Source: Pseudomonadota bacterium
Lineage (GTDB): Bacteria; Bdellovibrionota; FAC87; UBA2466
Assembly (NCBI GenBank): GCA_043767805.1
Contig: JAYUGC010000155.1
Span: forward strand, 1 to 24,186
Length of the DNA: 24,186 nt
Direction: 5' to 3'
Position numbers and translations under genes: made by a program. The notes beneath the pieces are model-generated. The model worked only from the letters and a program-made list of their open reading frames with translations, was not told where the DNA came from and did no database searches. How positions within the stretch are numbered: position 1 is the first letter of the stretch; the number at the start of each line of letters is the position of its first letter. Of the stretch, positions 107 through 7,538 are shown piece by piece.

Positions 107-126
107 AATCGGGGCGGCAGGATTTG
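107..126. repeat. att core, tRNA-distal junction (duplicated 3' end of tRNA-Pro)
   Basis: Identical to 7519-7538; in tRNA orientation CAAATCCTGCCGCCCCGATT = T-loop to discriminator plus 2 nt. Confidence 0.93.
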
Positions 127-199
127 CCGAGGCCGCTTCGAGGTAATTGTTATAACTCGGCAAAGTAAATCATATCGATCACTTGGCCGGGCCGCGGCT

Positions 200-258
200 T
201 CCACCTGAATCCACCGATTTCCATGATTATCCTCGGCGCTGGTGGTTAGTGGTGGTTC
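200..258. repeat. Putative integrase arm / Xis binding repeats
   Basis: 10-bp-phased units TCCACCTGAA/TCCACCGATT/TCCATGATTA (200-229), then opposite-orientation CTGGTGGTTAGTGGTGGTTC (239-258), which recurs exactly at 7446-7465. Confidence 0.7.
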
Positions 259-334
259 AAACTTTGCTCCCCAGCCTTCTCAGTTATCTTGCACCCATTT
301 CGAGAAAATCAAAAAACGACGATGCCGAAAATAC

Positions 335-1558
335 CTACGGCCCAGGGTATTCCAAAATGGTCTTCAAAGTAACGCTATCGGCCAGCCCTATTAACTTGAA
401 GGACTCCACTCCGTATTTGATAAAGCCCGGTCGAGGGAGAGCCTTGCCAATCACCAACGTTCCTTCCAGCTCGAAATCATGGGTGGAAGCCGCCGGCAGC
501 AAGCCAGACTCCAATCTCCCCCGCATTTCGTCTGGAAATTCAGAAAGCGGGAACACCTTCTGTTTGGGATTGAGCCGGATAGAGATCGAAAAAGCTTGGT
601 CCACTTTCACAGCGCTCTTAACTTGCAATACCCCGTAATCCGAAAGGGTACCATCTTTCTCTGAACGAGCGAGTATGGCGACATTCTCTTGCTGAAACTG
701 GTAGCGAAATATCACGCAACTTTTATCCGCCGGGAGCAAGAGCCATTGCCGGGCTCGATCGGAAAGGGAACATAGTTCGTACTGGCGGGGAGGCGCGAAA
801 AAGGACCCCAAGCTCGAAAGTTCGGTGGAAAGAAATTCTCCCGCAGTATTCTTTTCGAGAATATGCTCTGGGTATCGCTCCGACATCAAATTCATCTGCA
901 TGGGGTTTAGATCCATGCCCTTACCGCCTAGGTGCGCAATGCCCAAGGTGTGCCCAATCTCGTGAATCAGCACCCTAAGCAGTAATCCCTCGTGGGTCCA
1001 AGGCTCCGAGTTAAGGTGAGAGCCTACGTCGAACTTATTCTCTCCTTTATCAGAAGCGATATAGACATAGCCTTTCCCCCGCAATGCCACCTCGTCATAG
1101 GAAGTCCGAACCGTGACTCCTACATGCTTCTGGAGGGGGACAAGAAAGTCTTTCTGTCCTTGCGTCAAGGTCCCAGCACCGAATTGAAATCGAATGTCCT
1201 CGTTCCCATCGCAGGGAATAGAGACGAATTCCTGTAAACCCAACCCATCGAGAACGTAAAAGGAGTCGTGCAGTCGAATGAACTCCTCATGCCAAAATTC
1301 GAAGGCTTTCTTTATCGCACTTTCGATGACGGCCCGACTTGCGGAAACCGAGACGGGGTCATGATCGAGGCAGTACGCCACTTTGTGTACATTCCCAACG
1401 AACCAGGGGTTGTTCGCGTCATTAATTACATCGCCTCCAGAGGAAACCCCACTCCCTTGAAGAGCCGGCCCCTTAAGGCTCGATCCACAGCCTGGAAGGA
1501 GCAAAAAGATGAGTAACAAGAAAACGTACGCTCGTCTCATTGGGATCGCTTTCATCAA
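335..1558 (-). CDS. Metzincin-type zinc metallopeptidase lipoprotein (matrixin/M10-like)
   Basis: 407 aa; hydrophobic signal with lipobox LPGC; HEIGHTLGIAH fits HExxHxxGxxH; Met-turn candidate NLMS downstream. Start could be 1558, 1555 or 1540. Confidence 0.85.
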   Translation of the reverse strand: MMKAIPMRRAYVFLLLIFLLLPGCGSSLKGPALQGSGVSSGGDVINDANNPWFVGNVHKVAYCLDHDPVSVSASRAVIESAIKKAFEFWHEEFIRLHDSFYVLDGLGLQEFVSIPCDGNEDIRFQFGAGTLTQGQKDFLVPLQKHVGVTVRTSYDEVALRGKGYVYIASDKGENKFDVGSHLNSEPWTHEGLLLRVLIHEIGHTLGIAHLGGKGMDLNPMQMNLMSERYPEHILEKNTAGEFLSTELSSLGSFFAPPRQYELCSLSDRARQWLLLPADKSCVIFRYQFQQENVAILARSEKDGTLSDYGVLQVKSAVKVDQAFSISIRLNPKQKVFPLSEFPDEMRGRLESGLLPAASTHDFELEGTLVIGKALPRPGFIKYGVESFKLIGLADSVTLKTILEYPGP

Positions 1559-1591
1559 GAGGGTGTCTAGAACTGTGCTCTAGACACCCTC
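1559..1591. promoter_or_regulatory. Perfect 13-bp intercistronic stem-loop
   Basis: GAGGGTGTCTAGA (1559-1571), 7-nt loop, TCTAGACACCCTC (1579-1591); fills most of the 39-nt gap; no U tract. Confidence 0.6.
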
Positions 1592-1597
1592 GAATAA

Positions 1598-2053
1598 TCA
1601 TCGCGAGTATTCGCACCGATAGAGCGCCTTGCCGCCAGCCTCGGCATAGTGCTCAAGTTTATTGCCCTTCAGCTGGTACACTACTTTGCCCCTGATTTCT
1701 ACCGGGGCTTCGTTCCCTATTTTGCTCTTAGTGACGACAAAAAGTGCCAAGGAGTCGTTTGATTGCCATCGAACGTTCGTTACGGCCGATTGACTGGTGC
1801 CCAAAGACGGACTCGACACGATAAGGGTGGACTTTGTTCCTTGTAAGGGGAAATTCTCGCCATCGATATCGATGGAAACATCACAGCTCGTTTGGCGGAT
1901 CTTTGTGTTCGTCGGGATCTCCGCCCCCGTAGCGGTCTTACAGACTCCCCTCCATTTACCCGTAAAATCCGGACAATTTCCGCGCAAAGGACTCGCCTTT
2001 AGACCTTCCGGCAACAAGGCAAATAAAGCGACTAGCGTAATCACTGTCTTCAT
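1598..2053 (-). CDS. Secreted hypothetical protein (beta-rich, 4 Cys)
   Basis: 151 aa; signal peptide MKTVITLVALFALLPEGLKA; RBS GAGGAG upstream; CPDFTGKW start resembles small beta-barrel proteins. Confidence 0.8.
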   Translation of the reverse strand: MKTVITLVALFALLPEGLKASPLRGNCPDFTGKWRGVCKTATGAEIPTNTKIRQTSCDVSIDIDGENFPLQGTKSTLIVSSPSLGTSQSAVTNVRWQSNDSLALFVVTKSKIGNEAPVEIRGKVVYQLKGNKLEHYAEAGGKALYRCEYSR

Positions 2054-5765: not shown

Positions 5766-5770
5766 GGAGA

Positions 5771-5835
5771 CTCGCCCTCCGCTGCTGGCCCCTCCCCCTC
5801 TACGATGGGAAGGGGCCAGCAGCTACGGGCTCGAG
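5771..5835. other. Long GC-rich hairpin (origin/nick-site or attenuator candidate)
   Basis: Perfect 13-bp arms GCTGCTGGCCCCT (5781-5793) / AGGGGCCAGCAGC (5811-5823), extendable inward and outward; no poly-U on either strand. Confidence 0.6.
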
Positions 5836-5928
5836 AGAGTTCTGTAGTGTTCGAAGGACAGCGGGAAAAAAATACGGAAAAGAATGCGGATCTAGGATTG
5901 GAGAAATGAAAATGAACGAGAAAACAAA

Positions 5929-6195
5929 ATGGGTAATAGGGAACCTTTCAATCATTTGCCGGGGATCGGGGGAGTGGTTAGTATCCCCCAGCAGTTAAAC
6001 CGTCCAGAAATGGGTGGTGTGTTCTTTGGAAATCTGGTGACCAAGAGACAGCTCGCTGATCAGCTGAGTTTGTCCCCAAGCTTCATCAATAAACTGATGG
6101 GCGACGAAGGACTTCCTCATCTCAAGATTGGCCGAGCTGTCCGATTCAGAACAGTGGAAGTCGTGGCCTGGCTCCAACAAAGGAGAAGACCATGA
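5929..6195 (+). CDS. xis: HTH_17/AlpA-like excisionase (recombination directionality factor)
   Basis: VTKRQLADQLSLSPSFINKLM...GLPHLKIGRAVRF...VVAWL; ATGA overlap with the integrase; start uncertain (5929 or 6010). Confidence 0.85.
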   Translation: MGNREPFNHLPGIGGVVSIPQQLNRPEMGGVFFGNLVTKRQLADQLSLSPSFINKLMGDEGLPHLKIGRAVRFRTVEVVAWLQQRRRP

Positions 6196-7478
6196 CAACT
6201 AAGTTCAATCCCAAAACGTACCAAGGGAAAGACAAACTCTATGTCGCCATCCCTTCAGCGCCGCGCATATCGCGGGTTTGGATCTGGGGTGAAGGGCACC
6301 GGGAATACCGGTCCCCGGAAAACCAGAACCCCTACATGGCAAGACGCTGGGAGGACACAGGCGGAAAGAGGAAACGCACCTATCGTTTCTTCGAAAGCCT
6401 CGAAGCAGCGCGCACCTGGCAACAGGGAATCGAACAAGCCGTGGTACCGGAGCCCACAAAATCCGGACCCACTTTTCTCGAAATCATCGAGGAATGGAAA
6501 CGGCGGCGGTTCCCGGCGATGGAAGAAAGCACCACGGTTCGTTACGAAAACATGCTTGGCCTCTACTTCGATAGCCTCCTTGGGTTCACCATCCATGAGA
6601 TCACGCCCCAGCGGGTGGATCACTGGTTGGACGAACTAAAGGATCCGAAGTCGTGGACGATGAAGTCCAAGAAGCGGAAAATGTTCGACCACGAACTGAG
6701 CCTGCTTTCGACCATCCTGAAGTACTACGACAACTACCATGACGATCCCGAGTTCCGGTTTCCGATTAAGCAACGTCACAAGGACGGGGTTTGGTTGAAA
6801 CGAAGTTCGGGAGCCAAGGACAAGCAGTTGCCGGAGGAGCACTTCCTAAAATTCAGGGAAGCGCTCCGAAGTCTTCCGGAGGGGAAACTCCTCGCAGGTC
6901 TTGCGACGGTGCAGTACTACCAGGCCCTTCGGATTTCCGAAGTGGCGGCGCTCTACTGGGAAGATGTCTATCTCGACCAGGAGAACCCGAACCAGTCCCG
7001 CCTCAAGGTCCGTCGAAAGGTGTTCTGGCCCCGAAAGAAAGGACGCAAGTCTTGTGTCCAAGACGGGTTCAAGAATGCCGGAAGCGGCCATAACGAAGGC
7101 ATGAAGGAGCAACCTCTCTTCCCTGAAAGCCACGAGGCACTGGCGGAAAGGCATTGCCCCGGGGCGCGAGGACTCGTGTTCGAGATCGAAGGCACGCACC
7201 TCAAGTACGGCCTCCTACAGCACCGTTACGACAAAGCGTTCAAGAAAGCAGAGCTTCCCTACAGTGGCACTCATGTCATGCGCCACGGCGGATGTTCCCG
7301 GCTTTTCGACGAGCGCGGAGACCTGGGAGTGGCCAAACAGATCCTCGGCAACTCGTCGCTCAGGTCCGTTGAGGTCTACGCCCGCCGATCGAAGACGGCA
7401 CTTACCGACGTTGCGAAACAACATTGGGAGAAAAAACGTCTGAGACTGGTGGTTAGTGGTGGTTCGGAAAATCGTTAA
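6192..7478 (+). CDS. int: Tyrosine recombinase / site-specific integrase
   Basis: 428 aa; ALRISE (R), THVMRH (HxxR), ILGN (usually LGH), EVYA (Y); ends 42 nt from the tRNA 3' end. Confidence 0.95.
   Translation: MTTKFNPKTYQGKDKLYVAIPSAPRISRVWIWGEGHREYRSPENQNPYMARRWEDTGGKRKRTYRFFESLEAARTWQQGIEQAVVPEPTKSGPTFLEIIEEWKRRRFPAMEESTTVRYENMLGLYFDSLLGFTIHEITPQRVDHWLDELKDPKSWTMKSKKRKMFDHELSLLSTILKYYDNYHDDPEFRFPIKQRHKDGVWLKRSSGAKDKQLPEEHFLKFREALRSLPEGKLLAGLATVQYYQALRISEVAALYWEDVYLDQENPNQSRLKVRRKVFWPRKKGRKSCVQDGFKNAGSGHNEGMKEQPLFPESHEALAERHCPGARGLVFEIEGTHLKYGLLQHRYDKAFKKAELPYSGTHVMRHGGCSRLFDERGDLGVAKQILGNSSLRSVEVYARRSKTALTDVAKQHWEKKRLRLVVSGGSENR
7446..7465. repeat. Arm-type repeat inside integrase 3' end
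   Basis: CTGGTGGTTAGTGGTGGTTC identical to 239-258; two TGGTGGTT units 10 bp apart. Confidence 0.8.
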
Positions 7479-7518
7479 CTGAAAACCGCTTGTGCTATCG
7501 GAAGGTTAGTAAAAACAG

Positions 7519-7538
7519 AATCGGGGCGGCAGGATTTG
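7519..7538. repeat. att core, tRNA-proximal junction
   Basis: Identical to 107-126; overlaps the tRNA 3' end. Confidence 0.93.

Follow-up and report, generated by a model that had tools for sequence, protein, structure and literature searches.

A tRNA-Pro island in a Bdellovibrionota genome: a putative mobilizable element with a MOB_C-like Replic_Relax protein and no coupling protein

General organization of the island

The stretch of DNA described here (the window) is an entire contig of 24,186 bp (JAYUGC010000155.1, called C155 below), one of the 204 contigs of a 4.5-Mb metagenome bin. Those relatives of its proteins that bear names come from metagenome bins of Bacteriovoracaceae/Bdellovibrionales. 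Near the left end of the window lies an island (positions 107–7538), situated at the 3′ end of a tRNA-Pro(TGG) gene and encoding a tyrosine integrase (Int), an excisionase-type protein (Xis) and a Replic_Relax protein (RR), the last of these a MOB_C-like, putative relaxase. A first-pass annotation had remarked that the island has no gene for a coupling protein, replicase or capsid, and no such gene was found in it here. The G+C fraction is about 0.50 over positions 1–5000, compared with 0.56 for the whole window.

The tRNA gene that serves as integration target (7520–7594, minus strand) is recognised by ARAGORN and by the Rfam tRNA model (68.4 bits). Its 3′ end is covered by a 20-nt attachment (att) core, AATCGGGGCGGCAGGATTTG, at 7519–7538 (plus strand), and a direct-repeat copy that is identical at 20 of 20 positions marks the tRNA-distal end of the island (107–126, plus strand). 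With up to three mismatches allowed, these are the only two matches in the window, and two copies were reached in none of 100 shuffles. Inside the cores there is another exact 20-nt repeat, made of two tandem TGGTGGTT words. One copy (239–258, plus strand) is 113 nt inside the distal core, and the second (7446–7465, plus strand) is within the 3′ end of int, 54 nt from the proximal core. All four copies of TGGTGGTT in the window sit in these two places, a number reached in 0 of 100 shuffles. Since circle formation would place them as direct repeats around the core, we infer from the sequence that they are arm-type integrase sites. The arm repeats of the first-pass annotation are thereby real as an exact repeat, of which there is, however, just one pair. 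Compared with the tRNA-Pro(TGG) genes of three relatives, that of the window carries a compensated stem change (CCGG...CCGG to CAGG...CCTG on the plus strand, at window positions 7531 and 7543); one of the two changed bases belongs to the att core, both copies of which have it.

The right-hand part of the island is a row of four plus-strand genes. It begins with orf106 (4645–4965), the product of which has an N-terminal hydrophobic helix followed by a coiled coil, and continues with the RR gene (4962–5765), a GC-rich hairpin (5774–5830), xis (5929–6195) and int (6192–7478). The stop codon of orf106 (TGA, 4963–4965) and the GTG start codon of RR at 4962 overlap by 4 nt (GTGA), as do the stop codon of xis (6193–6195) and the ATG of int at 6192 (ATGA). 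Xis matches the helix-turn-helix (HTH) family HTH_17 (PF12728; 32.2 bits vs 27) and approaches TIGR01764, ‘excise’ (27.4 bits vs 28.8), and Int (428 aa) matches PF00589 (E = 1.6e-10). In a related locus (L032) the same gene order of RR, xis and integrase is found, its Xis being 62% identical to that of the island and its integrase 49% identical over 418 aa. The att repeats, the gene order with its hairpin, the overlapping stop and start codons and the identities of Int, Xis and RR had all been put forward in the first pass, and all hold, with scores above the Pfam gathering thresholds for PF00589, PF12728 and PF13814.

The Replic_Relax protein

The proposal made in the first pass hinged on 4962–5765 being a Replic_Relax gene, and the product does match PF13814 above the gathering score (E = 8.5e-9; 36.2 bits vs 25.3), over residues 13–173. 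A word-index search returned 23 homologs, and in the 21 that were aligned the residues H92, D93, D138, E155, E157 and K161 are invariant. Four of them (D138, E155, E157 and K161) make up a PD-(D/E)xK signature, with 16 residues between D138 and E155 (D-x16-E-x-E). An AlphaFold model of RR has a pLDDT (predicted local distance difference test) of 89.4, and residues 1–78 correspond to a MarR-like winged helix (Z 9–10, root-mean-square deviation about 2 Å over 70–77 residues). Over its full length the model finds restriction endonucleases and further PD-(D/E)xK proteins as the best Foldseek rows (FokI, SfsA, YaeQ and BspD6I), at weak values (E = 2e-3 to 1e-2). Judged from the signature and the model, RR appears to consist of a winged helix and a PD-(D/E)xK core as in MOB_C relaxases, and is a putative nickase. 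The MOB_C relaxases pAD1 TraX and CloDF13 MobC likewise combine an N-terminal winged helix with a core of this type, including the lysine.

TraX is described in PMC12857230 as a winged helix joined to a PD-(D/E)XK domain with a restriction-endonuclease-like active site, and its MOB_C family stands apart among the nickases of conjugation in being related to restriction enzymes. The same account, in the sections drawn on here, places the direct-repeat binding site of MOB_C relaxases 70–120 bp from the nick, mentions that no covalent intermediate was observed, and treats the way in which the DNA reaches the secretion machine in MOB_C systems as an open question.

Proteins of this kind are numerous. 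A profile of the closer clade of RR proteins (see below), run against 1.84 billion representative proteins, collected 196 clusters (at 50% identity) with E ≤ 1e-30 and 1877 with E ≤ 1e-3, and among the best 150 nearly all are stand-alone proteins of about 210–390 aa. Against the sequences of solved structures, the RR profile gave nothing below E = 0.09.

Candidate origins of transfer

Two intergenic regions are candidates for an origin of transfer (oriT). The better candidate, as inferred from sequence features, is the divergent intergenic region 4212–4644, a possible oriT and/or operator of 433 nt that is AT-richer (G+C 0.46). It contains an inverted repeat (4370–4392/4454–4476) with 23-nt arms that are 83% complementary, separated by a 61-nt spacer (fold z = −3.0; 2 of 200 shuffles as good), and TCYGGAC-type words at 4279, 4295, 4384, 4456 and 4465. 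The clustering of these words is local, as TCCGGAC is not enriched window-wide (six matches, a number reached in 42 of 100 shuffles). In the part of a recent preprint (10.64898/2026.01.13.699239) that concerns its location, the MOB_C oriT lies between the mating-pore operon and the relaxase gene, which fits an upstream site in the island. The alternative candidate is the hairpin between RR and xis (5774–5830), which has 27-nt arms and no T-run after it. Its folding as DNA (−23.6 kcal/mol; z = −4.8; 0 of 200 shuffles as good) leaves little doubt that the hairpin seen in the first pass is real.

A clade of Replic_Relax proteins without a coupling protein

A first set of 17 loci around RR homologs was collected, and their 255 open reading frames (ORFs) were scanned against Pfam. 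The closer homologs (at least 30% identity) are found in a row consisting of a small ORF, RR, sometimes Xis, a tyrosine integrase or large serine recombinase, and a tRNA gene, and none of them has a coupling protein. The distant paralogs (23–30% identity) are located directly behind a VirD4-type coupling protein (e.g. L034, L036 and L039) and beside CagX and TrbI. When 401 genomes of the phylum were searched with a profile, RR turned up in 167 (E ≤ 1e-12), with bimodal scores. There are 73 rows at or above about 179 bits, of which 40 with usable flanks were sampled; 7 were already in the first set, 1 is the window, and 25 (mostly short contigs) were left out. For comparison, 20 lower-scoring RR loci on long contigs were sampled as well.

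None of the 40 high-scoring loci shows a match of the VirD4 or FtsK type, whether by our own hidden Markov models (HMMs) applied to all ORFs of at least 60 aa or by Pfam applied to the 91 ORFs of at least 400 aa within 8 kb; at least 3.2 kb of upstream sequence was present in 38 of them. The nearest to exceptions are a HerA/DUF87 ATPase two genes off (L086), a primase-like gene 7 kb off (L094) and the second, MobP-type element of L104 (below). The prevailing layout is a small membrane coiled-coil ORF, RR, a small ORF or Xis, and a recombinase, which is of the serine type in 30 loci, of the tyrosine type in 8, and lost to the contig end in 2. A minus-strand tRNA gene occurs within 4.5 kb downstream in 25 of the 40, and in 7 a repeat of at least 15 nt was found, those islands being 6.7–11.8 kb in size. 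In one locus (L104, ∼10500–16100) a serine-recombinase/RR element stands back to back with an opposite-strand element that has a tyrosine integrase, Xis and a MobP-type relaxase (PF03432).

In contrast, a coupling protein is encoded immediately upstream of RR in 17 of the 20 lower-scoring loci, 11 of them VirD4-type (own HMM) and 6 FtsK_SpoIIIE (Pfam), the three without being L106, L115 and L119. CagX and TrbI were each detected in 11 of the 20 (own HMMs), and a TraC/VirB4-like ATPase is Pfam-confirmed in the 8 loci whose candidate was scanned. Among loci L107–L125 (e.g. L108, L110, L111, L123 and L125) there is a conserved conjugative set of TraC/VirB4-like ATPase, CagX, TrbI, coupling protein, in some cases a glycine-zipper lipoprotein, RR and recombinase.

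In a tree of 76 RR proteins (quick IQ-TREE run with midpoint root, supports by the Shimodaira–Hasegawa-like approximate likelihood ratio test, SH-aLRT, only), one branch (SH-aLRT 94) sets 52 rows, none of them with a coupling protein, apart from 24 others, where 21 possess one. The RR proteins linked to FtsK cluster as a single group (support 99). The placement of L106 and L119 among the 52 rows is unsure because of their long branches, and L035 and L115 sit beside sisters that bear a coupling protein, as would be expected of sporadic deletions. The RR of the window groups with that of a serine-recombinase element (L066), so recombination modules have been exchanged within the clade.

The absence of a coupling protein is a trait of the clade and not a one-off deletion. 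The first-pass annotation had allowed for the case that homologous elements always carry a type IV coupling protein (T4CP), and this does not apply, as a T4CP or FtsK-type gene is present in 0 of the 40 same-clade loci. The description that it gave, of a compact element integrated at a tRNA gene that has Int, Xis and a Replic_Relax/MOB_C-like protein but lacks a coupling protein, is supported as that of a whole family.

The genome of the window holds other RR elements. One (L039, contig C159, 451–5415) encodes a VirD4-type coupling protein, which is the only coupling protein of the genome as assembled, followed by an RR paralog, xis, a tyrosine integrase and tRNA-Gly. As C159 starts 450 nt before the coupling protein, L039 is either a mobilizable element that encodes a coupling protein itself or the terminal part of a conjugative one that was not assembled. 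A third, decayed RR element (L038, contig C122, ∼8000–11200 in the locus) is found at a tRNA-Val gene. It comprises a fragment from the C-terminus of an FtsK-type coupling protein, a match to RR interrupted by stops, and an ORF for a serine recombinase in which the ‘Recombinase’ domain alone is matched.

The small gene upstream of Replic_Relax

In the coupling-protein-linked elements the gene between the coupling protein and RR, if there is one, codes for an unrelated glycine-zipper lipoprotein. In the clade of the window, crude gene calls give 36 of the 40 high-scoring loci a same-strand ORF just upstream of RR, and in 33 it ends within 100 nt of the RR start. Thirty-two of these ORFs encode proteins of 92–207 aa that have a strongly hydrophobic segment followed by a charged tail resembling a coiled coil, at the end of which there is a short amphipathic motif (SALxDFL or AIEELxKG, for example). 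The remaining four are found in L087 and L090 (116 aa, weakly hydrophobic) and in L091 (378 aa) and L094 (75 aa), the latter two more than 100 nt upstream. By phmmer, 32 of 43 such upstream ORFs are linked into one family. The observation made in the first pass, that a small membrane coiled-coil gene holds the position of the coupling protein, therefore recurs across the clade.

The product of orf106 shares position, translational coupling, architecture and a similar C-terminus with the upstream ORFs of the clade, and its match to an HMM of the 32 is at just E = 0.018 (7 bits). It is thus a positional analog of the small membrane gene of the clade, and homology is not established. That the small upstream ORF might be left over from the membrane domain of a coupling protein was not supported, the best coupling protein matching the family HMM at only E = 0.088.

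A complex of RR with residues 26–106 of orf106 was predicted with a score of 0.36 (best of three controls, 0.08). Of 157 solved complexes 116 pass the mark used, as do 2 of 215 mismatched pairs; at or below 0.60, it is passed by only 18 of the 157 solved complexes together with both of the passing mismatches. Three runs agree in at least 94% of the contacts, and the pLDDT of the partner is at least 82. The models weakly suggest that the two proteins associate.

Comparison with known elements

The features commonly used to recognise an integrative mobilizable element (IME) are present in the island: it has its own recombinase and att repeats, a relaxase as judged by profile, residues and paralog context, and no genes for a coupling protein or a type IV secretion system (T4SS). 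An integrative and conjugative element (ICE), for which a mating-pore set is required, is a poor description, there being no VirB4-, TraC-, TrbI- or CagX-like gene on the contig.

RR is very distant in sequence from the described MOB_C relaxases, and its paralogs in the phylum sit in conjugation clusters. MOB_C plasmids and IMEs bring their own VirD4 coupling protein according to the relevant parts of PMC5357655 and PMC5704250, whereas the RR clade of the window has none. In those parts of Coluzzi et al. (2017; PMC5357655), just two of 144 streptococcal IMEs have a PF13814 relaxase, both with a VirD4 coupling protein and a serine integrase, and Guedon et al. (2017; PMC5704250) mention a few mobilizable plasmids that have their own VirD4 and also encode MobC. 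The streptococcal IME_Class_8 (as outlined in PMC5357655) resembles the island in its PF13814 relaxase and in the compact block of mobilisation gene(s), relaxase, excisionase (where present) and integrase at one end. It differs in having VirD4 and a serine integrase, where the island has a tyrosine integrase with Xis, and a small membrane coiled-coil gene in the place of the coupling protein. Although a serine integrase is missing from the island, a large serine recombinase is found in 30 of its 40 clade relatives.

The Bacteroides IMEs NBU1, NBU2 and Tn4555 are also similar in encoding an integrase and a relaxase and in lacking coupling protein and mating-pore genes; by the account in PMC5704250 they carry an oriT and rely fully on the T4SS of a helper. 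Their relaxases are MobP, MobQ or MobV, of the HUH type, while the putative relaxase of the island is non-HUH and restriction-endonuclease-like (PMC5704250 and PMC12857230, in the portions on these families). Closest in taxonomy are the coupling-protein-linked RR elements of Bdellovibrionota (L108, L110, L125 and that on C159), which share with the island the phylum, the RR family and the terminal order of RR, Xis in some, recombinase and tRNA. They have in addition a TraC/VirB4-like ATPase, CagX, TrbI and a VirD4- or FtsK-type protein, and in the tree their RR proteins are separated from that of the island by the dividing branch. For other relaxase families, IMEs that lack a coupling protein are well known. 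No published description of the RR clade, either as Bdellovibrionota elements or as MOB_C IMEs without a coupling protein, was found in the literature searched, at the level of titles and abstracts.

The left flank

Only 106 nt precede the island. They are the end of a dispersed repeat resembling an insertion sequence (IS), which abuts the distal core within a few bases and has a subterminal GC hairpin and a T-run (window 1–102). The flank (1–106) matches contig ends of its own genome only: contigs C189, C76 and C158 end in near-full-length copies (93–102 nt, 99–100% identical), and C190 and C117 in partial ones (∼50 nt, 90–92% identical). Copies of full length agree up to ...ACTGAATGGTT and diverge beyond it. 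Nowhere in the assembly was the inner part of the repeat found. A public contig over the IS-like repeat has a depth of 36, about 5 times the ∼7.7 of the island. The junction of repeat, core and island is covered by assembled contigs from three runs (three samples of one study), the spanning contigs being listed for two of the runs (X1, 70–2323; X2, 67–417).

No empty attB was found in relatives, owing to the repetitive left flank and the loss of synteny: orthologs of the MMPL gene of the right flank in four relatives have no adjoining tRNA-Pro. A genome of the same genus (G001) has its tRNA-Pro(TGG) on a contig of 2.7 kb, with an ORF of 397 aa and without an integrase at the 3′ side, and the flanks could not be aligned to the window.

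Interpretation and alternative explanations

The island (107–7538) is probably an IME, integrated at the 3′ end of tRNA-Pro(TGG) and belonging to a large MOB_C-like lineage that does without coupling proteins. Int and Xis would recombine the two 20-nt cores and release a circle of 7.4 kb, with the tandem TGGTGGTT sites serving as arm sites. On the circle, RR would bind and nick an oriT, preferably at 4212–4644 or alternatively at 5774–5830, and the DNA would then exit via the coupling protein and mating channel of a conjugative element located outside the island. The orf106 protein, anchored in the membrane and translationally coupled to RR, could hold the relaxase–DNA complex at the membrane or at the helper machinery. 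The island also looks composite: as it contains relics of a second integrase gene and a second DUF4423 gene (described below), it has been rearranged, and some of its cargo may stem from an earlier tandem copy that was fused by deletion.

Several observations weigh against this interpretation. The fold matches of the nuclease domain of RR are weak, and the NCBIfam model MobC_subf (NF041423) gives 39.2 bits against a cut-off of 200, which makes RR a relative but not a member of that subfamily. When 72,556 plasmids were searched with RR (tblastn), only seven small Bacillus plasmids were matched, at 23–24% identity. For orf106, the word-index search gave only the protein of the window itself, and jackhmmer on the collected upstream ORFs and coupling proteins gave no homolog. 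The repeats in 4212–4644 could equally be operators of the divergent winged-helix operon. Joints of an excised circle or an empty site were not seen in four contig-only runs of one study, a search of little power at a depth of ∼7, and with the left chromosomal flank replaced by the IS-like end, the original attB is not reconstructable.

A helper is likewise not in evidence. Contig C155 has no match to T4CP, FtsK-type, VirB4, TrbI or CagX proteins (tblastn and HMMs), and in the 204-contig genome neither the T4SS families PF03135, PF03743 and PF19044 nor, by tblastn, the VirB4-, TrbI- and CagX-like proteins of relatives found a match; as the genome is a metagenome bin, mobile contigs may be missing from it. 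Among 10 genomes with an element of the clade, 5 have no match to P-loop_TraG (VirB4-like), and two of these are closed single-contig genomes (G243 and G387). Carriers without a VirB4-like gene are normal for elements awaiting a helper, yet they leave room for a role of RR in replication or maintenance.

Such a role is the basis of the first alternative, in which RR is a rolling-circle nicking initiator or other maintenance factor of the excised circle, and the island replicates transiently and spreads by other routes. The carrier genomes just mentioned would agree with it, as would the nearest annotated plasmid relatives of RR, which are the Bacillus plasmids of 9–18 kb, all typed non-mobilizable. 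The name of the Pfam family refers to replication as well as relaxation, and both functions are tabulated for it in PMC3424549, in the table concerned. Relaxases of integrated elements can also double as replication initiators, MobT of ICEBs1 being an example given in the corresponding passage of PMC5357655. However, the 40 loci share no conserved gene for a helicase, primase or other replication function next to RR, the sole primase-like ORF seen being the one in L094, and RR paralogs of the same phylum are embedded in T4SS clusters. We regard this explanation as unlikely, with the proviso that replication and transfer are not mutually exclusive roles.

It is distinctly unlikely that the island is a dead, immobile remnant, be it a deletion derivative of a conjugative element or a fused, decayed pair. 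What speaks for decay is the IS-like element abutting the distal core, the lack of a detected helper, the decayed RR element on C122 of the same genome, and the presence of two gene relics. The first of these (3213–3259, plus strand) comprises 47 nt that are 96% identical to int 7065–7111 and encode Int residues 292–311; since this stretch of peptide is also conserved in the L032 integrase (49% identical), it is regarded as the genuine remnant of a second integrase gene, one from the same family. The other (3343–3505, plus strand) is the C-terminal part of a second DUF4423 gene and matches residues 231–284 of the product of the DUF4423 gene at 2197–3054 (tblastn, 30% over 54 aa, E = 3e-6). Both lie in a non-coding scrap zone between cargo genes. 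On the other hand, orf106, RR, xis and int are all open with their catalytic residues conserved, and both pairs of 20-nt repeats are 100% identical. As all 40 related loci sampled have the layout without a coupling protein, a local deletion does not account for its absence, and sporadic losses look different, L035 and L115 each being placed beside a sister with a coupling protein.

The relics also suggest a variant in which the current element is limited to ∼3.5–7.5 kb (the pair of 107-aa and winged-helix genes described below, orf106, RR, xis and int), and 107–∼3500 is the carcass of an older tandem copy. The relic at 3213–3259 has the orientation and position expected of the 3′ part of an older int, with scrap around it, and tandem accretion at tRNA sites is common for elements of this kind. 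Yet no third core or arm site, even a degenerate one with up to three mismatches, is present inside the island. The sole usable pair is therefore 107–126 and 7519–7538, and the whole 7.4 kb would move as a unit, so that this variant is very unlikely. The small size, the tRNA target and the int-xis module would suit a phage satellite or other virus-dependent island as well, but no capsid, terminase, primase or phage-interference gene was found in the island by Pfam, NCBIfam or PADLOC, and RR had no match in 50,697 phage records, which makes a viral connection extremely improbable.

Returning to the mobilizable element, a more specific proposal, which we consider speculative and rather unlikely, is that a MOB_C-type lineage has swapped its coupling protein for a small membrane-anchored coiled-coil adaptor, namely orf106 and its analogs. 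If this were true, the orf106-RR unit would be a minimal docking device, by which islands of 7–12 kb with serine or tyrosine integrases use foreign coupling proteins or a host FtsK-like translocase, and a previously unrecognised route of gene exchange in Bdellovibrionota would be the consequence. A large and diversified clade without a coupling protein, and with a tiny membrane protein in its place, amounts to a natural experiment on the need for a coupling protein, and orf106-RR would define a simple two-gene mobilisation cassette that is testable. The survey also adds to the picture of mobile elements in Bdellovibrionota, conjugative elements as well as the small riders on them.

Cargo genes

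The island had been called minimal in the first pass, which is not apt, since five cargo genes and the two gene relics are also located in it. Leftmost is a minus-strand gene (335–1558) for a 407-aa lipoprotein-like metalloprotease (Pfam Peptidase_M10, E = 2e-6; 28.2 bits vs a cut-off of 24), the translation of which shows a HEIGH motif and a lipobox-like N-terminus. It is followed by a gene for a 151-aa protein (1598–2053, minus strand) with a signal-peptide-like N-terminus and no family (sub-threshold matches only), and by the plus-strand gene (2197–3054) for a 285-aa protein of the DUF4423/TIGR02147 family (PF14394, E = 3.9e-11; TIGR02147, 47.3 bits with a cut-off of 50). Beyond the scrap zone, a minus-strand gene (3548–3919) codes for a winged-helix protein of the HVO_A0114 family (123 aa from an internal ATG; PF25212, E = 1.2e-18; 67 bits vs 27.6). 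Its upstream partner (3888–4211, minus strand) encodes a 107-aa protein without a Pfam, NCBIfam or PADLOC match, and a reading of the two as a known toxin-antitoxin pair was dropped on this account.

The cargo of related islands is partly defence-like. It includes sets of Multi_ubiq, ThiF/DUF6791 and DUF6527 genes and restriction-modification enzymes of the Eco57I/MmeI type, as well as a 1150-aa reverse-transcriptase protein and toxin-antitoxin pairs (HigB/HTH, Gp49/HTH_37 and PIN/RHH). Defence-like cargo is located at 5500–7358 in L017, 3401–5454 in L025, 13314–15887 in L066, 3067–6051 in L076 and 11350–14802 in L073.

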